From contig CP061210.1 in assembly GCA_026016225.1 (NCBI GenBank), positions 194,000 through 257,999 on the forward strand: 64,000 bases of DNA. Reading direction: 5' to 3'. The position numbers and the translations under genes are program-made. The DNA is from Candidatus Nealsonbacteria bacterium. GTDB taxonomy: Bacteria > Patescibacteriota > Minisyncoccia > Minisyncoccales > JANBVM01. Below are positions 6,997 through 59,298 of this stretch, one piece after another (the first letter of the stretch is position 1; each line of letters starts with the position of its first letter). The notes beneath the pieces are model-generated. The model ran no database searches, was not told the DNA's origin, and was given only the letters and a program-made list of their open reading frames with translations.

Positions 6997-8289
6997 ATGA
7001 AGTTCATTGCCGATTTCCATTTACATTCAAAATATTCAAGGGCTACTTCCCCAAAGATGGATTTGGAAAATCTTGAGGAATGGGCAAAGATAAAAGGAAT
7101 TAAAGTTTTGGGAACAGGAGATTTCACCCACCCTTTTTGGTTTAAAAACTTAAAAGAGAAATTAGAACCTGCAGAAAGCGGGCTTTTTAAGATTAAGAAC
7201 CACGCTTCGCGGAACCTTGATTCTCGCTCCGCTCGAATTAAAAACAGTAATACCGGGATCCGTTTTATTTTAAGCGCTGAAATTAGTTGTATTTATTCCA
7301 AAGGAGGGAAGGTCCGTAAAATTCATATTGTAGTTTTAGCTCCCTCTTTTGATATTGTTGAAAAAATTAATACCCGTTTGGAAGGAATTGGGAATTTATC
7401 TGCTGACGGAAGACCAATATTAGGATTAGATGCAAAAGAATTGTTAAAAATTGTTTTAAACATCTCAACAGATTGTTTGTTTGTTCCCGCCCATGTAATG
7501 ACTCCCTGGTTTTCTATTTTCGGTTCAAAATCTGGGTTTGATTCAATTGAGGAATGTTTTGAAGATTATTCTAAATATATTTTTGTTTTAGAGACTGGGC
7601 TATCGGCTAACCCACCAATGCTCTGGCGCATACCAGATGCTCAAAAAGCAATTTTAATATCAAATTCAGATGCTCACTCACCAGCTAATATTGGTAGAGA
7701 GGCAAATGTTTTTAATACGGAGATTAGTTATCCTGCTATTGTTGAAGCTATAAAATCAAGAGATTCCGAAAAGTTTCTTTATACCATTGAGTTTTTTCCT
7801 CAGGAAGGAAAGTATCATTACGACGGTCATAGAATGTGCGGTATCAGATTAGCTCCCGAGGAATCGAAAAAATATAACAATATTTGTCCTAACTGCGGCA
7901 GACCCTTAACAATCGGAGTTTTAAATAGGATAGAACAATTATCAGTTGAGCCGAAAGGTTTTAAACTAAAAGGAGCTATTCCTTTTAAAAGCTTAGTTCC
8001 TTTGAGAGAAATAATTGCCGAAGTCTTGGGAATGGGTGTTACTACCAAAGGTGTTGAAAAAGAGTATAAGTCTTTAATTGAGAATTTTGGTAATGAGCTT
8101 GAAATTTTGCTTAATACTTCTCATGATGAGTTAGAGAAAGTTACCTTGCCTGAGACTGCAGAAGGAATAATTAGGGTTAGAGAAGGAAAAGTTTTTGTAG
8201 AACCCGGTTATGATGGGGTTTATGGAAAAGTAAGAATTTTTTCTAAAGGAGAACAAGAGTCTTTATCTAAACAAGGAGTCCTTTTTTAA
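6997..8289 (+). CDS. endoQ: PHP-domain endonuclease Q (EndoQ / TIGR00375)-like protein
   Basis: 430 aa. N-terminal PHP motif DFHLHSKYSRATS, GKYHYDGHRMCG, and zinc finger CPNCGRPLTIGVLNRI. Size and layout match the EndoQ family. Confidence 0.55.
   Translation: MKFIADFHLHSKYSRATSPKMDLENLEEWAKIKGIKVLGTGDFTHPFWFKNLKEKLEPAESGLFKIKNHASRNLDSRSARIKNSNTGIRFILSAEISCIYSKGGKVRKIHIVVLAPSFDIVEKINTRLEGIGNLSADGRPILGLDAKELLKIVLNISTDCLFVPAHVMTPWFSIFGSKSGFDSIEECFEDYSKYIFVLETGLSANPPMLWRIPDAQKAILISNSDAHSPANIGREANVFNTEISYPAIVEAIKSRDSEKFLYTIEFFPQEGKYHYDGHRMCGIRLAPEESKKYNNICPNCGRPLTIGVLNRIEQLSVEPKGFKLKGAIPFKSLVPLREIIAEVLGMGVTTKGVEKEYKSLIENFGNELEILLNTSHDELEKVTLPETAEGIIRVREGKVFVEPGYDGVYGKVRIFSKGEQESLSKQGVLF
7191..7244. 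repeat. GC-rich repeat element inserted in frame in the EndoQ-like gene
   Basis: ATTAAGAACCACGCTTCGCGGAACCTTGATTCTCGCTCCGCTCGAATTAAAAAC. It shares ATTAAGAACCA, GAACCTTGATTC and CTCGCTCCGCTCG with the reverse complement of the 14473-14558 tandem units. Flanked by ATTAAGAAC / ATTAAAAAC. Confidence 0.7.
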
Positions 8290-11365: not shown

Positions 11366-11387
11366 AAGCCGCAAAAAAGCGGTTTTT
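11366..11387 (+). terminator. terminator after the activase gene
   Basis: AAGCCGC-aaaaaa-GCGGTTT hairpin with a T-run, immediately followed by TATAAT (11392-11397). Confidence 0.5.
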
Positions 11388-11409
11388 GTTATATAATAGA
11401 AATAGAAAA

Positions 11410-12339
11410 ATGTATCCAAGCTACTTAAATTTATCTAAAGAGGATTTAAATCAGAGGATAGAAAAACTTTTTAAAGTTTTAGAAAATTGTGAGATTTGTC
11501 CAAGGAAATGTTATGTAAATAGGATAAAAGGAGAAAAAGGATATTGTCAATTAGATTTTCTACCAGTAGTTTCTGCTTTTCACCCCCATTTTGGTGAAGA
11601 AAGTCCTTTGGTTGGAAGGTTTGGTCCCGACTCATGGGCGAGTCGAGGCGGGTCTGGAACAATTTTTTTCACTTCTTGTAATCTATCTTGTGTTTACTGC
11701 CAAAATTATGAAATTTCTCAATTAAGAAGAGGAGAAGAAGTTTCTTTTGAAAGATTAGCAAAAATGATGTTAGAACTTCAAAATCGGGGCTGCCACAATA
11801 TTAATTTAGTTACCCCAACTCCTCAGGTTCCCCAGATTTTAAAATCGCTTTCAATAGCAATTAAGCACGGTCTTAAAATTCCTCTTGTTTATAATACCAA
11901 TTCTTATGATTCAATTGAGGTTTTAAAATTATTGGATGGAATTGTCGATATTTATATGCCAGATGTTAAATATTCTGATGATAAGATTGCTTTGAAATAT
12001 TCTAATGCTCCAAAATATTTCGAAATAATGAAAGAGGCTGTTAAAGAGATGCACCGGCAAGTTGGAGATTTGGTTTTAGACGAAGAGGGAATAGCTATAC
12101 GAGGTTTATTAGTCAGGCATTTGGTTTTACCCAATGATTTGGCAGGTTCTGAAAAGATTTTCAATTTTATATCCAAAGAAATTTCAGAAAACACTTTTTT
12201 GAACATTATGGATCAATATAACCCCAATTTTAAAGCGTATCAGTATCCTGAGCTTTCTTGGAGGATTACAGATAAAGAATATCAAATGGCAATAAAATTA
12301 GCCAAAGAAGCAGGCCTTAAAAGGCTTTATAGAAATTAA
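11410..12339 (+). CDS. radical SAM protein, PflX-like (COG1313) activating-enzyme homolog
   Basis: CEICPRKCYVNRIKGEKGYC N-terminal motif and CNLSCVYCQN (CxxxCxxC). ATG 11410 is preferred over the track start at 11386, which lies in the promoter. Confidence 0.7.
   Translation: MYPSYLNLSKEDLNQRIEKLFKVLENCEICPRKCYVNRIKGEKGYCQLDFLPVVSAFHPHFGEESPLVGRFGPDSWASRGGSGTIFFTSCNLSCVYCQNYEISQLRRGEEVSFERLAKMMLELQNRGCHNINLVTPTPQVPQILKSLSIAIKHGLKIPLVYNTNSYDSIEVLKLLDGIVDIYMPDVKYSDDKIALKYSNAPKYFEIMKEAVKEMHRQVGDLVLDEEGIAIRGLLVRHLVLPNDLAGSEKIFNFISKEISENTFLNIMDQYNPNFKAYQYPELSWRITDKEYQMAIKLAKEAGLKRLYRN
11623..11652. repeat. GC-rich hairpin element in frame in the radical SAM gene
   Basis: GGTCCCGACTCATGGGCGAGTCGAGGCGGG. 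Stem CGACTC (11628-11633) / GAGTCG (11640-11645) with a 6-nt loop. Encodes GPDSWASRGG inside the otherwise conserved G-x-GSGTIFF region. Confidence 0.55.
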
Positions 12340-13401: not shown

Positions 13402-14448
13402 TTATTTTGCTGGTAGCCAAACAATCAAATTTTCCTTTGTTTCAAACTTCCCATTAATAAATTTTTCAATTACCCAGATATTAGTTTTACAGTGACTTGT
13501 GATTTCTGAAACTGTAATCTGGGATTTTTTAGGAGATAAGGCTAAGTAGGCTAAAATTTGGTCACCTAAATGTTTATCCAGACAAGCTTTGCTTTTTTCT
13601 TCTTTTAATAATTCCAAAGCTGCTTCTTTACCAACATCTTCTGCTCTTTTTCCCAATTTCCCAAAATTATCAGTTCCAATAATCGTGTTTTCAAATTCGG
13701 CTATTAGAGAAATCTGACTGCCAGGACATTGGGGTTGATAATATTCTACTTTTTCCTCAATAGGCAATTTTAATTTCCCAAAAATTTCTCTTACCCCGGC
13801 AACTTGACGCTCTGCCACTTTTTTATTCCTTAATAATTCTGAAGCCCCGGAAATTACTGAAATTTTTTGAAGTTGACCTCTTTTAATTAAATGGAGTGGT
13901 TTTAATTTCGAAGGATAAATTTTCACCTCAACTTTTGCTCCACCTTCTGGATAGTAGCCTCTTTTTAAAATATTAATTTCTACTTTAACTCCCATTCTTT
14001 CTAATAATTTTAAAAAAACATATTGAAAATAATCAATAGTTGGTGAGAAAAAGGTATCGGTAGCACCACCATTGAAAGTAATTTTTATATATTTGGGAGT
14101 TTGCCCTGGGACTGTCGAATGGGCAAAAATAGAAGGAGGAATTAATGTTTGTAAAAGTAAAGTAATACTTCCTGCTGTTGGAATGTTAATTGAGATATGT
14201 TCTTGATAATTTGAGCCGGGATAGAATTTTATTTCAGTTGACCCTAAATAGTTGCCTTCCAATTTTCCATTACAAAAGTGGGCTAAAGCTTGAAGTCCTA
14301 AAAGATGCTGGTATCTCAAACCGGGCTTTGGTCTTTTTTTTCGAATATTAAAAACACGGCAATTTCTTTTAGTAATTGCTGCTAAAGCAGTTGCCACTCT
14401 CAATATAGCTCCACCGCCTTCATATTTTGAACCATCAAGTTCTAACAT
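13402..14448 (-). CDS. rtcA: RNA 3'-terminal phosphate cyclase
   Basis: 348 aa. MLELDGSKYEGGGAILRVATALAAIT..., RPKPGLRYQHL, and LLQTLIPP...GGATD are characteristic RtcA blocks. Confidence 0.8.
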   Translation of the reverse strand: MLELDGSKYEGGGAILRVATALAAITKRNCRVFNIRKKRPKPGLRYQHLLGLQALAHFCNGKLEGNYLGSTEIKFYPGSNYQEHISINIPTAGSITLLLQTLIPPSIFAHSTVPGQTPKYIKITFNGGATDTFFSPTIDYFQYVFLKLLERMGVKVEINILKRGYYPEGGAKVEVKIYPSKLKPLHLIKRGQLQKISVISGASELLRNKKVAERQVAGVREIFGKLKLPIEEKVEYYQPQCPGSQISLIAEFENTIIGTDNFGKLGKRAEDVGKEAALELLKEEKSKACLDKHLGDQILAYLALSPKKSQITVSEITSHCKTNIWVIEKFINGKFETKENLIVWLPAK

Positions 14449-14472
14449 ATTTCTAATATCTAATTTCCGGAG

Positions 14473-14558
14473 GAATCAAGGTTCTGCCGAGCGGAGCGAG
14501 GCATGGTTCTTAATTCGCAGAATCAAGGTTCTGCCGAGCAGAGCGAGGCAGGTTCTTA
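14473..14558. repeat. two tandem copies of a 47-nt GC-rich unit upstream of rtcA
   Basis: Unit GAATCAAGGTTCTGCCGAGC(G/A)GAGCGAGGCA(T)GGTTCTTA(attcgca). Unit 1 is 14473-14519 and unit 2 is 14520-14558. Each has a CTGCC...GGCAG hairpin flanked by GGTTCT direct repeats. Confidence 0.85.
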
Positions 14559-14612: not shown

Positions 14613-14653
14613 TAATTGTAGAACAATTACAAGGAGCGAAGCGACTGGTTTCC
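14613..14653. repeat. partial copy (right half) of the 59192-59261 palindromic element
   Basis: Hairpin TAATTGT-aga-ACAATTA followed by GGAGCGAAGCGACTGGTTTCC. This matches 59242-59261 over 20 nt with one extra T. Confidence 0.7.
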
Positions 14654-18363: not shown

Positions 18364-18768
18364 ATGAGATTTTCAATTAGTACAAAAGGGTTTACTGATA
18401 TTATTGATATAACCTCAAAGGTTTCTGAGTTTGTGAAAAAATCTGGTGTAAAAGAAGGAATTTGTTTGATATCCTGTCCCGGTTCAACCTGCGGAATAAC
18501 AACTATTGAGTACGAATCAGGGTTGATTGAGGATTTGAAAAGAGTTTTAGAAAAAATTGCGCCAATGTCAAAGGATTACGAACACTGTAAAAAATGGGGA
18601 GATTGCAATGGTTATGCTCATATTCGTTCAGCCTTAATGAAGCCATTTTTAGCTGTCTCTATTGAGGAAGGGAAATTAGTTTTGGGTACGTGGCAAAACC
18701 TCGTTTTTATTGACTTCGATAACAGACCTAGAGAGCGGAAGGTGATAATTAAAATTATTGCGGGATAA
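18364..18768 (+). CDS. yjbQ: YjbQ-family (UPF0047, secondary thiamine-phosphate synthase) protein
   Basis: 134 aa. DITSKV..., CPGSTCGITTIEYE and GYAHIRSALM...GTWQ blocks are characteristic of YjbQ. Confidence 0.7.
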   Translation: MRFSISTKGFTDIIDITSKVSEFVKKSGVKEGICLISCPGSTCGITTIEYESGLIEDLKRVLEKIAPMSKDYEHCKKWGDCNGYAHIRSALMKPFLAVSIEEGKLVLGTWQNLVFIDFDNRPRERKVIIKIIAG

Positions 18769-19897
18769 GTTGATATTTAAATCGCGAACCTTTCTTATAC
18801 TTTTTAACTTTATTTTGTTTCATTAACATTTGTAAATGATGGTAAACTGTCCATAAATTTATATTAGCTATTTCCCGTAACTCAAAAGCAGTTTTAGATT
18901 CCGCTTTTAAAGCGTTTAATATTATTCTTTTGGTTTCAAATTTCTTCCTTTGTTTCCAACTCCTGTGTTTGAATTTTATTATATTACCAATCTCGTTTAA
19001 TTTTCTTCCGATGCCTAAGTTAGGATATTTAAAAATTAATTCATTGCAGCCTTGAAAGAATTTTTCTACAGATTCATAACTTAATAATAATGAGTAATGT
19101 TCTCTTGTCATTTTACCTCTCCATTTGAAAGTAGAAATACTACATTTATATCCCAGCGATTCAACTATATTTCTCAAATCCATAATGAATTTTTTATTAG
19201 AAGATAGAAACCTTACACTCCCAGAGACATTTCCATCATCGTGCAAAAACGCTAGCAAAGTTGCAATTTTATTTTCTTTATCTCCTTTTAGTACCTTGGG
19301 AGGAATTCTACATTTAGCACTTAGATAGGTGGGAATATTGAAATAGTTTGTTACGATAACTGAAAATATAGCTGGAAAATAATGCGCTCTTTTATATTTT
19401 TTAATTCTATATTTCCCGAAAACATTAGAAGTTATTTTTTCAAATCTTTTCAAGCCACTTTCTTCTTTTTGGTAATATATAAAATTATTTCTATTAATAC
19501 ATCCATCGCACATCATATGAATTGCAATAGACGTGAACTCGGGTGTAATCTTTATCGGTAACTGTGGTCTGAAAATATAAAGTCTTCCATAAGTAGAAAC
19601 ATAACCCTGTATGTTTCTTTCAACTTCTAATAGTGTGACCTTTATCTTCTTTGAAATCTCATATATAGCCCATGCTGGGATATACTTTGCTTTTTTATGG
19701 TATTGCCATACAATTCTATAGTCAGTGGTAATATTTTTGTTATATAATTTTGATTTCCTCTGTAAAAATAAAGCTAATTTCTTCACGGATTTGAAATCTT
19801 TCTTGGTTTTTTCAAAAAACTTTTCTTTAAAATCTGAATTTAACTTAATAGACATTAAATAAAGCGGAAATTGCCACCAATGAATACTTTTCTGCAT
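18755..19897 (-). CDS. free-standing double-motif LAGLIDADG homing-endonuclease-like protein with a C-terminal winged-helix domain
   Basis: 380 aa. Motif 1 is SIAIHMMCDGCI (Asp131) and motif 2 is LLAFLHDDGNVSG (Asp220/221), about 90 aa apart. The C-terminal ELREIANINLWTVYHHLQMLMKQNKV is HTH-like. The 3' end overlaps yjbQ by 14 nt. Confidence 0.6.
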   Translation of the reverse strand: MQKSIHWWQFPLYLMSIKLNSDFKEKFFEKTKKDFKSVKKLALFLQRKSKLYNKNITTDYRIVWQYHKKAKYIPAWAIYEISKKIKVTLLEVERNIQGYVSTYGRLYIFRPQLPIKITPEFTSIAIHMMCDGCINRNNFIYYQKEESGLKRFEKITSNVFGKYRIKKYKRAHYFPAIFSVIVTNYFNIPTYLSAKCRIPPKVLKGDKENKIATLLAFLHDDGNVSGSVRFLSSNKKFIMDLRNIVESLGYKCSISTFKWRGKMTREHYSLLLSYESVEKFFQGCNELIFKYPNLGIGRKLNEIGNIIKFKHRSWKQRKKFETKRIILNALKAESKTAFELREIANINLWTVYHHLQMLMKQNKVKKYKKGSRFKYQLIPQ

Positions 19898-20616: not shown

Positions 20617-22398
20617 ATGAACAATCTCAAAATTGCCAAAATATTTTATATGATTGCAGAATATTTGGAAATGGAAGAAGACCCTTTTAGACCCCAAGCT
20701 TATAAAAAAGCAGCTTTTACTTTAGAGAACATGGAAGAAGATGTTGGAGAGATTTACAAAAGAGAGGGGACAAAGGGACTGAAAAAAATCCCCGGAGTAG
20801 GAGAAGGAATTGCTTCAAAAATTGTAGAATACTTAAAAGTTGGAAAAGTAAAATACTATGAAAAACTGAAGAAAAAAGCCCCGGTTGATGTGGAAGAACT
20901 TACTGCTGTTGAGGGAATGGGACCAAAGAGAATTAAGATATTGTATAAAGAGTTAGGAATCAGAAACATCAAAGATTTAGAGAAAGCAGTCAAATTACAT
21001 AAAATTGCTCCATTATTTGGCTTTGGTGAGAAAACCGAGAGAAATATTTTAGAAGGAATTGAGTTTTTAAAAAAAAGTAAAGGTAGATTTTTATTGGGAG
21101 AGATTTTACCTGCAGCAAAAGAGATTTACGAGAAATTGAAAAATTTAAAAGAGGTTGAAAAAATTACTATTGTAGGTTCTTTAAGAAGAATGAAAGAAAC
21201 TATTGGTGATATTGATTTTTTAATCACTGTTAAAGGATCTAAAAAATCCGCCTTAGCTAAAGCTTCAGCAAATAAGATAATGGATTTTTTTGTTTCTCTG
21301 CCAGATATTGTCAAGCTCTGGGGGAAAGGACCTACAAAATCATCTGTAAGAATGAGGCAAGGTTTTGATGTGGATATCAGGGTTATTCCGGCTGAAAGCT
21401 ATGGAGCAGCTCTTCAGTATTTTACAGGCTCAAAAGAACATAATATTATTACAAGAAAAATTGCTATTGCTAAGGGTTTAAAATTGAATGAATATGGGTT
21501 GTTTCGGGGTTCTAAAATGCTCGCTGGAAAAAATGAAGAAAAGATATATGAAATCTTGGGTATGCAATGGATTCCACCTGAATTGAGGGAAGACCGGGGA
21601 GAAATTGAAGCAGCTCTTAAAGGAAAATTACCTGTATTAATTGAAAAAAAAGATATCAGAGGTGATTTGCATTGTCATTCAAATTGGGATGGAGGAGAAC
21701 ATTCAATTTTAGAAATGGCAAAAAAAGCAATGGAAATGCATTATGACTATTTAGGGATTTCAGACCATACAAAATTTTTAAGGATAGAAAATGGTTTGAA
21801 TGAAAAACAGTTATCCCAGCAAAGAAAAGAAATTGATGAATTAAATTCAAAATTCAAAATCAACCCTACGGGGAGTCGTAGGCGACAACAAAATTCAAAA
21901 TTTAGAATATTACAGGGAGCAGAAACAAATATTTTAAACGATGGCTCAATTGATATTAATGATACTGCTTTAAAGAAATTGGATTATGCTATTGCTGGAA
22001 TTCACTCCAATTTTAAGATGACAAAAGCAAAAATGACAGAGAGAATAATTCGGGCAATGAAAAACCCAAATATTAATATTATTTCTCATCCTACGGGAAG
22101 ATTGTTAAAGAGAAGAGAAGAATACCAGATTGATTTTGATAAAATCTTGAGGGCAGCTAAGGAATTTAGTGTTGTCTTAGAAATCAATTCTTTTCCTTTA
22201 AGATTAGATTTAAATGACCAGCATATTAGGCGATGCAAGGAGGCGGGAGTAAAAATGGTAATTAATACTGATTCCCATCATAAAAACCAGATGAGATATA
22301 TAGAATTAGGAGTAGCTCAAGCGCGCCGGGGCTGGGCTGAGAAAAAAGATATTATTAATACTCAATCTATAGATAAATTATTAAAATATTTTAAATAG
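20617..22398 (+). CDS. polX: family X DNA polymerase with a C-terminal PHP domain (PolX)
   Basis: 593 aa. HhH motifs (IPGVGEGIASKI, VEGMGPKRI), the Pol-beta-like core GSLRRMKETIGDIDFL, and a PHP domain (DLHCHSNWDGGEH ... NTDSHH). Confidence 0.8.
   Translation: MNNLKIAKIFYMIAEYLEMEEDPFRPQAYKKAAFTLENMEEDVGEIYKREGTKGLKKIPGVGEGIASKIVEYLKVGKVKYYEKLKKKAPVDVEELTAVEGMGPKRIKILYKELGIRNIKDLEKAVKLHKIAPLFGFGEKTERNILEGIEFLKKSKGRFLLGEILPAAKEIYEKLKNLKEVEKITIVGSLRRMKETIGDIDFLITVKGSKKSALAKASANKIMDFFVSLPDIVKLWGKGPTKSSVRMRQGFDVDIRVIPAESYGAALQYFTGSKEHNIITRKIAIAKGLKLNEYGLFRGSKMLAGKNEEKIYEILGMQWIPPELREDRGEIEAALKGKLPVLIEKKDIRGDLHCHSNWDGGEHSILEMAKKAMEMHYDYLGISDHTKFLRIENGLNEKQLSQQRKEIDELNSKFKINPTGSRRRQQNSKFRILQGAETNILNDGSIDINDTALKKLDYAIAGIHSNFKMTKAKMTERIIRAMKNPNINIISHPTGRLLKRREEYQIDFDKILRAAKEFSVVLEINSFPLRLDLNDQHIRRCKEAGVKMVINTDSHHKNQMRYIELGVAQARRGWAEKKDIINTQSIDKLLKYFK
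21848..21901. repeat. GC-rich hairpin insert flanked by 13-bp direct repeats, in frame in polX
   Basis: CAAAATTCAAAAT (21848-21860) and an identical copy (21889-21901) flank caaCCCTACGgggagtCGTAGGcgacaa. Stem CCTACG (21865-21870) / CGTAGG (21877-21882). Confidence 0.65.
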
Positions 22399-22399
22399 T

Positions 22400-22453
22400 A
22401 TGTTTTTGGAAAGATCGGCAGGAGCTGTAGTTTTTAGAAAAGAAAAAAAGGTA
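22400..22453 (+). pseudogene. possible N-terminal remnant of a Nudix hydrolase gene
   Basis: ATG at 22400, right after the polX stop, encodes MFLERSAGAVVFRKEKKV. E.SAGAVVFR is a common Nudix N-terminus. The frame then runs through a terminator and antisense into rplT without a Nudix box. Confidence 0.2.
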
Positions 22454-27413: not shown

Positions 27414-30400
27414 ATGAAAATTAATTTTCCAAAAACAGAAAAAAGAGTTCTGAAGTTTTGGAAAAAAAACAAAATATTTGGGAAAAGTTTAAAAAAGAGA
27501 AAAAATAGGCCAAGATTTGTTTTTTATGAAGGCCCACCTTATGCCAACGGTAGACCTGGTATTCATCATCTTTTAGCTCGTGCTTTTAAAGACATTATCT
27601 GTCGTTATAAAACCATGCAGGGATTTTTTGTTGCAAGAAAGGCTGGTTGGGATACTCATGGTTTACCTACTGAAATAGAAGCTGAGAAAAAATTAGGAAT
27701 TAAGAGTAAAAAAGAAATTAAGAAATTAGGTATTGAGAAGTTTATTAAAGAATGTAAAAGAAACGTTTTTACTTATAAAAAAGAATGGGAAGAATTTACT
27801 GAAAGAATTGGATATTGGCTTGATTTAAAAAATGCCTATATTACCTGTAGTAATAATTATATTGAATCAATCTGGTGGATTTTAAAAGAAGTTTATAAAA
27901 AAGGACTTTTATACCAAGACTTTAAAGTTGTTCATTATTGTCCAAGATGTGGAACTTCTCTTTCCACTCATGAGGTAGCTCAGGGCTACAAAAAAATAAA
28001 AGAACCTTCAATTTTCATAAAACTGAGGATAAAAAATTTAGAATTTAAGGGTTCTTACCTGTTGGTCTGGACAACAACACCCTGGACATTGCCGGGTAAT
28101 GTAGCTGTTGCTGTAAATCCTAATTTTACTTATGCAAAAGTAAAGATTGGTAATGAGTACTTAATATTAGCCAAAGACAGAATTTCAGCTTCTGGCATAA
28201 AAGGGGAGATTGTAGAAGAATTTAAAGGAAAGGATTTGATTGATTTAAGATATGAGGGTCTATATCCGATAGATTATGAGACTTCAAAGAATGCCTACAG
28301 AGTAATTTTAGGAGATTTCGTTTCTTTAGAAGAAGGGACAGGATTAGTTCATTTAGCTCCTGCTTTTGGAGAAGAAGACATGGAAGTGATTAGAACTCAG
28401 AATAAAAAACATAAAACTAAAAATATTCCTGAAATTCCGATTTTGTTAACAATTAACGAAGAAGGGAGATTTAATCTTAACGTTAAAAAATGGGCCGGAA
28501 TGTATTTTAAGGATGCCGACCCTTTAATAATTGAAGACTTAAAACAAAAAAACCTTTTATTCAAAGAGGAATTATGTGAACATGATTATCCTTTTTGTTG
28601 GAGATGCAAAAACCCTTTACTTTATTATGCAAAAAAGAGCTGGTTCATTAAGATGAAGAGAGTTAAGCAGGATTTAATTAAAAACAATAAAAAAATTAAT
28701 TGGGTTCCAGCTTATTTAAAAGAAGGCAGATTCGGAGAGTGGTTGAGAGAAGTTAAAGATTGGGCACTTTCTCGGGAAAGATATTGGGGGACTCCTTTAC
28801 CTGTTTGGAAATGCAAAACCTGTCTAAATTCAGAAGTTATAGGCGGTAAACAAGACCTTTTGAAACAAAAATTTAGTACCAATAAATATCTTATTTTACG
28901 GCATGGAGAAACAATTTATGTAGAAGGACTTAAAGAAATAATTTATTCTAAATCAGATAATTCTTCGCTTGGTTTAACGAAAAAAGGAAAAAAACAAATA
29001 AACACTTTAGCTAAAAAACTCAAAAAATCCAAGATTGATTTAATTTTTTCTTCAGATTATTTAAGGACAAGAAAAACTGCAGATATTATTGCTAAAGAAC
29101 TCGGTCTTAAAGTAAATTTTGATAGAAGATTGAGAGATATAAATTTAGGGATTTATAAAGGAAAAAGAAAAGAAGAACTTTATAAAGCTTTTTTAAACAT
29201 AAAAGAAAGGTTTTACAAAAAACCAAAAAACGGAGAAGATTGGTTGAGTTGCAGGAGAAGGATGATTAGTTTCATAAAAGAAATTGATAGAAAATATCAA
29301 AATCAAACCATTTTAATTATTAGCCATGGAGACCCCTTATGGATTTTGGAAGGAACTCTTAGGGGATTATCTCAGGAAGAATTTGTTAAACAAAAAATTC
29401 AGAAAAAAACAATAAAACCAGGAGAGCTAAGAAGAATCAGATTTAATTTATTGCCTCTTAACAAAAAAGGAGAATTTGATTTTCACAGGCCTTATATTGA
29501 TGAAGTGAAGTTTTCCTGCCAAAGATGTGGGGGTTTGATGGAAAGAGTTCCTGAACTAATTGATTGTTGGTTTGATTCAGGCTCAATGCCTTTTGCCCAA
29601 TACCACTATCCTTTTGAAAATAAAAAGATTATTGACCAAAGAAAGCAGTTTCCGGCAGATTTTATTTCAGAAGGAGTGGACCAGACCAGGGGTTGGTTTT
29701 ATACTCTACTTGCAATTTCTACTTTAGTTGGGAAAGGTCCAAGTTATAAAAATGTTGTTTCTTTAGGACATATTTTAGATGAAAAGGGTGAAAAAATGTC
29801 GAAATCAAAAGGAAATGTGGTTAACCCCTGGTATATTGCTGAAAAATATGGCGTAGATGCTGTCCGTTGGTACTTTTATACTGTCAATCAGCCAGGTGAT
29901 TCAAAATTATTTTCAGAAAAAGATGTACAAGAGCGTCTAAAAAAATTTATTATGAATTTCTGGAATTGTTTTTGTTTTTTCACAACATATATTCCTGTAA
30001 ACTATTCCCCGTTCTCTAATAGAAAAAGAAGCTTACCAAAAAGCAAAAACATTTTAGATAAGTGGATTATATCTAAGTTAAACAAACTAATTTTAGATAC
30101 AACAAAATTATTAGATAAATACGATATTACAGCTGCTGCTCGTTTACTTGAAAACTTTGTCGTTAATAATCTGTCTTTATGGTACATAAGAAGGTCAAGA
30201 AAAAGATTTCAAAGACCGGAAACAAAGAGAGAGTTAAAAGAAGCTTCCCAAACTTTGGGTTTTGTGCTTTTAACTTTAACTAAATTAACAGCTCCCTTTA
30301 TTCCTTTTTTGAGTGAAGCAATTTATCAAAAGGTTCAAGATTCAAGATTCAAGATTCAAGGTTTTAAAAGTGTTCATTTAGAAGACTGGCCGAAGATAGA

Positions 30401-59166: not shown

Positions 59167-59191
59167 ACTTTTTTAATTGAGAAACAATTAC

Positions 59192-59261
59192 GGAACCAGT
59201 CGGGGCTATGCCCCTCCTTGTCATTGCTTCGCAATGAATGAGGAGCGAAGCGACTGGTTCC
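59192..59261. repeat. 70-nt GC-rich palindromic (three-way-junction) element
   Basis: Perfect 11-bp terminal inverted repeats GGAACCAGTCG / CGACTGGTTCC enclose the hairpins GGGC-tat-GCCC and CTCCT..CATTGC-ttc-GCAATG..AGGAG. Confidence 0.8.
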
Positions 59262-59298
59262 TTTATTATATCATTAAACATTCTGAGAGAAGAAGGGC

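Follow-up and report, generated by a model that had tools for sequence, protein, structure and literature searches.

A short GC-rich insert in the PolX gene of a Candidatus Nealsonbacteria genome as a likely copy of a dispersed repeat element of Patescibacteria

Rickettsia palindromic elements (RPEs) are long palindromes restricted to Rickettsia, and an account by Ogata from 2000 reportedly places them in frame inside housekeeping genes. The G+C-rich clusters of yeast mitochondria are mobile and include optional clusters inside the coding region of var1, while the byp elements of Magnusiomyces mitochondria and the gap of phage T4 gene 60 are skipped by the ribosome and need be neither a multiple of 3 in length nor free of stop codons. 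The genomes of Patescibacteria, or the candidate phyla radiation (CPR), are among the smallest and most streamlined and are usually described as repeat-poor. Here, we describe a short segment at positions 21844 to 21903 of a 64-kb fragment (32% GC) of a Candidatus Nealsonbacteria genome; this fragment is the whole stretch of DNA that was analyzed and is called the window below. The segment lies in the gene for PolX, in which a Pol beta-like polymerase is joined to a PHP domain, and consists of a GC-rich core between two arms built from the heptamer AAAATTC (Table 1). We consider it likely that this segment is one copy of a dispersed, nonautonomous mini repeat element of Patescibacteria, ~60 to 70 nucleotides (nt) in length, and the family appears to be widespread in Patescibacteria.

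In behavior, RPEs would be the closest analogue, with nothing to suggest homology. Like RPEs, the element is a small nonautonomous repeat that lacks coding capacity and lives in a reduced, AT-rich genome; it occurs as in-frame copies inside housekeeping open reading frames (ORFs) as well as in intergenic DNA, and is predicted to be translated as extra surface segments. RPEs are ~105 to 146 nt long (PMC3184786). The PolX element, at ~60 nt, falls below this range and is set apart by described size, architecture, and host: against the long palindromes of Rickettsia stand ~60 to 70 nt with direct-repeat heptamer arms, a GC-rich core of 30 to 37 nt, one or two minihairpins, and a variable middle. 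The yeast clusters share short GC-rich hairpin units in an AT-rich genome, short AT-rich flanking repeats, and a presence that is optional between strains, sometimes tandem, and occasionally in frame in a protein gene. However, they are organellar and mostly intergenic, follow another consensus, and are flanked by a duplication of a few bases rather than by a heptamer array. REPs and REPINs are likewise short, GC-rich, imperfect palindromes with many dispersed, nonautonomous copies, but they are extragenic, carry a conserved 5′ tetranucleotide, lie alongside a RAYT (Y1/HUH) gene, and have no heptamer arms; the PolX copy is intragenic, and tblastn returned no Y1 match in the window. Miniature transposable elements with inverted repeats (MITEs) of bacteria can fuse in frame with ORFs (PMC3184786). 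Those such as Correia, ERIC, and RUP are also nonautonomous dispersed repeats, and among the pneumococcal BOX/SPRITE repeats BOX is modular with a variable middle. Unlike the much shorter element described here, MITEs carry terminal inverted repeats, together with target-site duplications that are site-specific, whereas the arms in PolX are direct repeats, the ends are not complementary, the same arms occur at all loci, and empty PolX alleles carry both copies of the flanking repeat. The byp elements and the gene 60 gap resemble the segment in being short GC-rich hairpin inserts in an AT-rich coding region with matching flanking codons; by contrast, inserts at the PolX site consist of whole codons and are stop-free.

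Evidence for a dispersed family comes from loci outside PolX. A metagenome scan, using as its pattern the left junction and core start (TTSAAAANNRAYCCTNCGGRGA, including TTSAAAA), recovered at least 120 loci; among the matches listed, 4 were PolX, and at least 30 non-PolX loci showed the same core and arms (for example, L068, which reads AAAAATTCAAAATTCAAAAGC AACCCTTCGGGGAGTCCGCTTCGCGTCCAGC AAAATTCAAAATTC). The copies share a layout in which a heptamer arm leads into AACCCTNCGGGGAGTC, followed by a short, variable hairpin, (GTCCAG)S, and a second heptamer arm; conservation of the right arm across the aligned family is 90% or more, even though this arm lay outside the search pattern. The window copy matches the core start exactly at 21862 to 21877 and has C-type AAAATTS arms on both sides of its core (21844 to 21860 and 21889 to 21903). 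The GTCCAG+S of the family 3′ end is missing from it; it ends in GGCGACAAC, which is nearest to the L028 subtype GGCGACAGG and marks a difference in subtype, not an exclusion from the family. A covariance model (R1) built from 23 copies and run over the window with filters off gave a single significant match, at this site (Table 1), followed by a next best of 17.6 bits (E value of 0.5). Across 25 fetched loci, R1 found 29 sites with E values of 6e-11 to 2e-3.

Most copies lie inside long ORFs, and some lie outside long ORFs or in intergenic DNA. Pfam identified as hosts a Mur ligase, methylpurine (MPG) glycosylase, LigA (NAD-ligase), UvrC, TIM, ArgRS, CCA/poly(A) polymerase, KsgA, FemAB, and IF-2, with PolX as the eleventh, while UvrA, a prepilin peptidase, transketolase, TsaE, and a class I tRNA synthetase were recognized by eye only. 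Genic copies are read in phase 0 (NPxGS), phase 1 (QPxGES), or phase 2 (TLRGxS) or from the reverse strand (TPRRV). Since the same DNA is read in three phases and both orientations, the element would be a DNA-level dispersed repeat that is tolerated by ORFs, not a peptide or protein module. Every genic copy keeps the frame of its host and is free of stop codons, so read-through translation is the simplest reading, and for PolX read-through across KINPTGSRRRQQNSK is predicted. In the KsgA loop, close orthologues carry a short connector, a solo heptamer run (FQIQNSKLQINSKFKIQNYK), or a run plus core in phase 0 or 2. Contig L074 carries, within 6 kb, three copies whose cores are identical, of which two lie in UvrA and the third in UvrC, and L124 carries two in an intergenic region; in these genomes, the sequences point to recent activity or homogenization. 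The assemblies that carry the element come independently from NCBI, JGI, ENA, and Logan. We found no description of a CPR element of this kind in the literature searched, coverage of which was incomplete.

Within PolX, the preliminary description had proposed a lineage-specific insertion, and the comparison with orthologues supports an insertion relative to most of them. In an alignment of 120 PolX homologues, mostly 570 to 575 amino acids (aa) long, the majority read ...EIDKLN, a connector of 7 to 9 residues, and then F[KR]ILQG, without the GC-rich segment; additional residues are present here in only a few, and homologues are typically 574 aa long, compared to 593 aa in the window. Relative to most orthologues, the GC-rich segment thus appears to be inserted, with a net gain over empty alleles of 27 nt (9 codons), 28 nt standing in place of one T. 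Many insert-free orthologues read NSKFKIQNSKFRIL or LNSKFKIQNSKFRILQG, with a solo heptamer run such as NSKFKIQNSKF. A PolX search of genome contigs returned 17 loci, the source species not among them, and supplied DNA of empty sites, though nothing on dispersal. The insert-free DNA of L007 is AAT TCA AAA TTC AAA ATT CAA AAT TCA AAA TTC, or (AATTCAA)x4.6, and holds both copies of the flanking repeat without the GC core.

This observation bears on how the flanks arose. The perfect 13-mer CAAAATTCAAAAT does occur at 21848 to 21860 and again at 21889 to 21901, with no third exact copy in 64 kb, and it brackets a 28-nt GC-rich segment (caaCCCTACGgggagtCGTAGGcgacaa, 21861 to 21888) as originally reported. 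The accompanying suggestion of a target-site duplication does not hold in its simple form because insert-free orthologues already carry both copies; the same arms are also found at unrelated loci. The arms would therefore be a constant feature of the family or of a preferred landing sequence, rather than a per-site duplication. The dispersal over unrelated genes nevertheless supports the view that the segment behaves like mobile or selfish DNA. With a spacing of 41 nt, a distance not divisible by 3, the two 13-mers sit in different codon phases. Each flank is a short tandem of AAAATTC that allows several repeat registers, so the protein-level duplication NSKFKI/NSKFRI, which is indeed present, arises from a 48-nt register and not from the 13-mers.

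Homologous inserts occupy the same PolX site in other lineages (NPTGSPSLRSVQ, NLSGSSLRVQ, and NPSGSPPAGVQ, with DPPEILRK in the PolX of a Wolfebacteria genome). These inserts begin with AAYCCTNCGGGGAG and end in CAR/CAG CAA AAT; inserts at the PolX site are 8, 9, 10, 11, or 12 codons long and stop-free in all cases. Filled alleles are scattered over a neighbor-joining tree. The core subtypes of PolX copies differ between lineages, and each recurs at non-PolX loci: L004 with L036, L068, and L074; L003 with L095; L005 with L130 and L113; L016 with the Mur ligase copy in L030; and the window copy with L028. Because of this pattern, the sequences indicate repeated insertion or conversion at a PolX hot spot rather than a single ancient event.

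A sibling strain (L001/L002) was compared with the window. It is ~97% identical to the window at the nucleotide level over 13 kb, while its PolX gene is only 92.4% identical. L001 keeps the PolX insert with two substitutions, both in the loop of the second hairpin (P2). The window copy would be an old insertion because it is shared with a strain whose PolX DNA is 92% identical, and, as the only one in 64 kb, it is probably inert. The sibling also has an extra, strain-specific 45-nt GC-rich insert, TCATCCTTCGACAAGCTCAGGATGATGCTGAACAAGGCCGAAGCA (ILRQAQDDAEQGRSI; L001 4632 to 4676 and L002 2520 to 2564), which lies exactly one heptamer upstream, is unrelated to the element, and is the only large indel in the comparison.

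The window PolX ORF is intact, matches Thermus PolX (3AU2) end to end (E value of 1e-130), contains the expected Pfam domains, and is 99% identical to the PolX of one Candidatus Nealsonbacteria metagenome-assembled genome. An AlphaFold model of the protein has a mean predicted local distance difference test (pLDDT) score of 89.5 and a predicted template modeling score of 0.83, and pLDDT falls below 50 solely at residues 416 to 426, the core peptide, which lie between a helix (396 to 415) and a strand (430 to 433). The arm residues form the end of the first helix, together with a helix at 421 to 428 and the strand at 430 to 433. The model agrees with the proposed location of the insert between a helix and the RIL.G.E strand and predicts NPTGSRRRQ to be a floppy or disordered surface loop of the PHP barrel.

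At the nucleic acid level, the first hairpin (P1, CCC-UNCG-GGG) is the most constant part of the family, with 98.8% of cells paired over 28 distinct copies and folding in most of them. None of these copies shows a compensatory change in P1, and since no pair changes on both sides, P1 is uninformative about structural selection. Roughly half of the copies form a clear P2 hairpin, and the others lack it; its stems in other copies are unrelated to one another (GUCGCC/GGCGAC, CCGCAC/GUGCGG, CGCC/GGCG, GCCGC/GCGGC, and UUUGCC/GGCAAA), and comparison with shuffled sequences gave p=0.036 for the window copy and p=0.008 for all copies together. The longer hairpin drawn in the preliminary description is the minimum-free-energy (MFE) fold in this strain but is broken in L001 (CGTAGG to CGCGGG), where two smaller hairpins survive (CCC-UACG-GGG and GUCG-CGGG-CGAC), and it is absent from other members. 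ViennaRNA folds the window segment into a 7-bp stem at −9.0 to −9.9 kcal/mol, with a z score of only −1.7 against core shuffles. A search with Rfam 15 found a transfer-messenger RNA (tmRNA) and two tRNAs in the window, and nothing above noise at 21780 to 21960 or in L074.

How such an element might persist inside genes can be sketched from its arms. On the coding strand, none of the three frames of the AAAATTC arms contains a stop. G-type AAAATTG arms, the complement of which, CAATTTT, is stop-free, occur in all five genic copies of reverse orientation, compared to forward genic copies, 17 of 21 of which are without G-type arms and mostly have AAAATTC (Fisher p=0.002 versus reverse). We propose that the element spreads at the DNA level as a left arm of AAAATTS heptamers, a core start, (R)AACCCTNCGGGGAGTC, that would fold into the tetraloop hairpin CCC-UNCG-GGG, a short variable and often palindromic module, in most cases followed by GTCCAG+S, and a right heptamer arm. 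Copies landing within unrelated housekeeping ORFs would leave them intact and be translated as extra loop residues. Each heptamer gained or lost would shift the frame by one (7 = 1 mod 3), and slippage could thereby restore the ORF. The arms resemble AT-rich Lys/Phe/Asn/Ile coding sequence and may offer microhomology for insertion or gene conversion, while recombination from arm to arm would delete the core and leave a solo run such as NSKFKIQNSKF. We put forward only tentatively that the element is adapted in this way to life inside genes, through stop-free, frame-shifting arms and loss of the core by arm recombination.

Other origins have to be weighed against a dispersed repeat family. If a classical transposon or a MITE-like unit had inserted here and thereby duplicated 13 bp of target (CAAAATTCAAAAT), this would account for the perfect direct repeats bracketing the core, for the agreement of arm types within every copy, and for the position of the sibling 45-nt segment, which coincides exactly with a heptamer boundary (3-nt ambiguity, TCA). 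We nevertheless judge it unlikely, given that empty PolX alleles carry both repeats, as (AATTCAA)x4.6, that the arms are identical in unrelated genes, where duplications should vary by site, that the 13-mers are 41 nt apart and mutually out of frame, and that terminal inverted repeats are absent. Alternatively, the segment could have arisen purely locally, by slippage or template switching in the PolX heptamer microsatellite, with no link to other loci. The PolX site is an indel hot spot with unrelated inserts in P0053, P0043, P0067, P0003, and P0080; heptamer runs differ in length between close strains, as in the IleRS gene (30330 to 30362); and the variable module frequently forms a small palindrome, as expected from hairpin-templated synthesis. 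Even so, a local event is extremely unlikely to explain a 16-nt core start and 3′ end common to at least 25 loci in unrelated genes, with E values down to 6e-11, and an independent de novo origin is untenable for a core shared so widely.

The segment might also be kept for what it does, either as a structured nucleic acid in the mRNA (a regulatory hairpin, a ribozyme, a byp-like bypass, or a protein-binding site) or as a peptide. The UNCG-type P1, conserved in 98.8% of cells, P2 stems that vary in sequence yet stay palindromic in a subset of copies, and a GC-rich core in AT-rich mRNA, reminiscent of the mitochondrial byp elements, would all suit a functional structure. We regard this as very unlikely, however, since P1 shows no compensatory change, roughly half of the copies lack P2, Rfam gave no match to the segment, the element is found in either orientation with respect to transcription, and genic copies are stop-free and in frame, which removal or bypass would not need. 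A selected peptide module, whether a short linear motif or an Arg/Gln-rich disordered loop useful to PolX, could draw on the recurrence of N-P-[TS]-G-S in several PolX alleles and on NPKG at the equivalent loop of Aquifex PolX. Yet other hosts translate the same DNA in three frames and from the opposite strand into unrelated peptides, most PolX orthologues do without the segment, and the model shows no defined structure there; to our mind, this explanation has almost no chance of being right.

A dispersed repeat family remains our preferred reading, and several observations weigh against it. Because the search pattern took in its left 7 nt, the left arm owes its presence in part to ascertainment, and in a copy found by the R1 model in L074 (3668 to 3717) this arm is nearly missing. 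The two arms of a copy agree in type in every case (C-C or G-G), including in a few intergenic copies, so a heptamer target may have been duplicated on insertion. R1 found only one copy in the 64-kb window, and in ~330 kb of relatives' DNA, fetched via the PolX or radical-SAM gene, it found only copies at the PolX site; copy number must then be very uneven, and the source genome may no longer host an active family. No Y1/HUH transposase was found in the window (tblastn with a Y1_Tnp protein). Finally, solo-run PolX alleles have the same length (574 aa) as run-less alleles, so that the lengths fit insertion into a run as well as loss of the core from a filled allele.

Table 1. Positions of the PolX insert, its parts, and related features (window coordinates unless a locus is named)
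Feature	Position	Strand	Description
Host gene, bacterial PolX (Pol beta-like polymerase + PHP domain)	20617-22398	+	Intact ORF, 593 aa
Left arm AATTCAAAATTCAAAAT	21844-21860	+	~2.4 heptamer units AAAATTC; encodes NSKFKI; holds first 13-bp repeat
GC-rich core CAACCCTACGGGGAGTCGTAGGCGACAA	21861-21888	+	61% GC; encodes (I)NPTGSRRRQ
Right arm CAAAATTCAAAATTT	21889-21903	+	Heptamer repeats; encodes QNSKF; holds second 13-bp repeat
Hairpin P1 CCC-UACG-GGG	21864-21873	+	UNCG-type loop; most conserved part of the family
Hairpin P2 GUCG-UAGG-CGAC	21875-21886	+	Variable module
Alternative hairpin of the preliminary description, CCTACG-gggagt-CGTAGG	21865-21882	+	Minimum-free-energy fold, this strain only
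Covariance-model (R1) match	21853-21899	+	57.4 bits, E value of 2.4e-8; sole significant match in window
Relatives of the radical-SAM insert	L025 10214-10255; L026 10253-10399; L027 10410-10448

Within the window, the 28-nt core is one of the local GC peaks. Its palindromic part, the 19-mer CCCTACGGGGAGTCGTAGG, occurs once even with 3 mismatches allowed (0 in 100 shuffles), and no further copies of the PolX hairpin or its k-mers were found in the 64 kb; a whole-window repeat search was dominated by AT-rich noise. A likeness of CCTACGGG...AGGC to the region of the 16S primer 341F amounts to an 8-mer and a 4-mer and was dismissed as chance.

A second GC-rich insert lies in a radical-SAM ORF (11386 to 12339), at 11626 to 11652 (CCCGACTCATGGGCGAGTCGAGGCGGG). 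It is 27 nt long, in frame, and forms a GC-rich hairpin encoding PDSWASRGG, and orthologues that are 78% and 70% identical lack it. The preliminary description had likened it to the PolX hairpin, and the two do share a 16-nt stretch, GGG(C)GAGTCG(T)AGGCG (p ~0.003 by shuffling), but R1 gave no match at the radical-SAM insert. Its relatives at the same site in other lineages are 33 to 36 nt long, with GPASPDSLARRG and GPVSTGRLRQG as their products; in one genome, the site holds a tandem of four strongly palindromic 36-nt units (GPASPDSGASQG x4). These relatives have another consensus and no heptamer arms, and we rejected placing both inserts in one family on account of this consensus and the failure of R1 to detect the radical-SAM copy. 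From these comparisons, the radical-SAM insert would be a second family with its own hot spot and the same kind of phenomenon.

Further candidates of this kind occur in the window. A third in-frame GC-rich insert, at 7201 to 7245 (45 nt, HASRNLDSRSARIKN), is flanked by ATTAAGAAC and ATTAAAAAC, lies in an ORF (6997 to 8289, 430 aa) with a weak PHP_C match, and is absent from three orthologues. Its reverse complement has two ordered 13-mers in common with 14469 to 14557 (p ~5e-4), an intergenic tandem GC-rich element upstream of an RtcA-like gene. This RtcA-like ORF (13402 to 14448, minus strand) has at 14095 to 14118 an extra 24 nt (62% GC, STVPGQTP) relative to its L017 orthologue, possibly another small insert. 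The source genome thus carries several kinds of short GC-rich inserts in genes. Separately, an intergenic hairpin with an 11-bp stem (GGAACCAGTCG...CGACTGGTTCC) lies at 59189 to 59262, between pth and a lepB-like gene; its 3′ 21-mer CAAGGAGCGAAGCGACTGGTT recurs at 14620 to 14652 in the RtcA/GreA intergenic region, and AACAATTAC precedes both. A 20/21-nt relative of the sibling 45-nt insert forms a perfect long palindrome in L123 (5550 to 5595), just upstream of what reads by eye as the 5′ end of a 23S rRNA gene, which suggests yet another dispersed palindromic family.

Heptamer runs and variable sites were also seen elsewhere. The IleRS gene contains a heptamer microsatellite, (AAGRTTC)x4.5, at 30330 to 30362 that encodes KVQDSRFKIQGF, is absent from the L014 orthologue, and differs by 9 nt in length from L001, with none like it in 10 shuffles; this run may be a solo-arm relative of the element. 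In PolX, the two 7-residue units ahead of the RILQG strand show concerted evolution from lineage to lineage (NTKYKIL-NTKFKIL, NEKLKIK-NEKFRIL, NFQFPIS-NFQFRIL, and NLKFKIA-NLKFRIL), which fits repeated homogenization or turnover of a 21-nt tandem. A second variable PolX site, at window positions 21235 to 21276 (residues ~207 to 220), reads SKKSALAKAS in the window, with related inserts (SKKPAFAKAS and SASAKAS) and unrelated ones (PRRGPASPAKRGERGSPGRA and VGRGSPNKA) in scattered orthologues and none in most.

Gene content around PolX differs between the window and L001. The window segment 18735 to 20564 corresponds to L001 3320 to 3342 and holds, as extra genes, a 380-aa ORF (18755 to 19897, minus strand) with weak LAGLIDADG_3 and HTH matches and an MFS gene, whereas NUDIX and GATase_7 genes follow PolX in L001 (5277 to 7132) and are missing from the window at 22453/22454. 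LAGLIDADG inteins were annotated in a ribonucleotide reductase beside PolX (L003 2568 to 5487) and in a BcrAD/BadFG-type ATPase (L027 3423 to 5639), both on contigs of related CPR bacteria. A RAYT/Y1 gene was considered as mobilizer and rejected: it adjoins PolX in L005 and L105 only and is absent from the window and the other loci, so the association is anecdotal.

In a group of streamlined genomes, a repeat family of this kind would occupy essential genes for DNA repair, translation, and the cell wall without destroying them. Its inserts would account for many of the odd low-complexity loops rich in Arg, Gly, Ser, and Pro in CPR proteins, and they would inflate apparent protein divergence and give rise to indel hot spots by which alignments and trees can be misled. 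The heptamer arms as a frame-restoring device are a simple hypothesis, testable in strain-resolved metagenomes. If adaptation to life inside genes proves true, the element would represent a separate class of mobile DNA of CPR bacteria that is tolerated within coding regions, and it would repeatedly give rise to loop insertions at hot spots in essential enzymes such as PolX, KsgA, UvrC, UvrA, and TIM.

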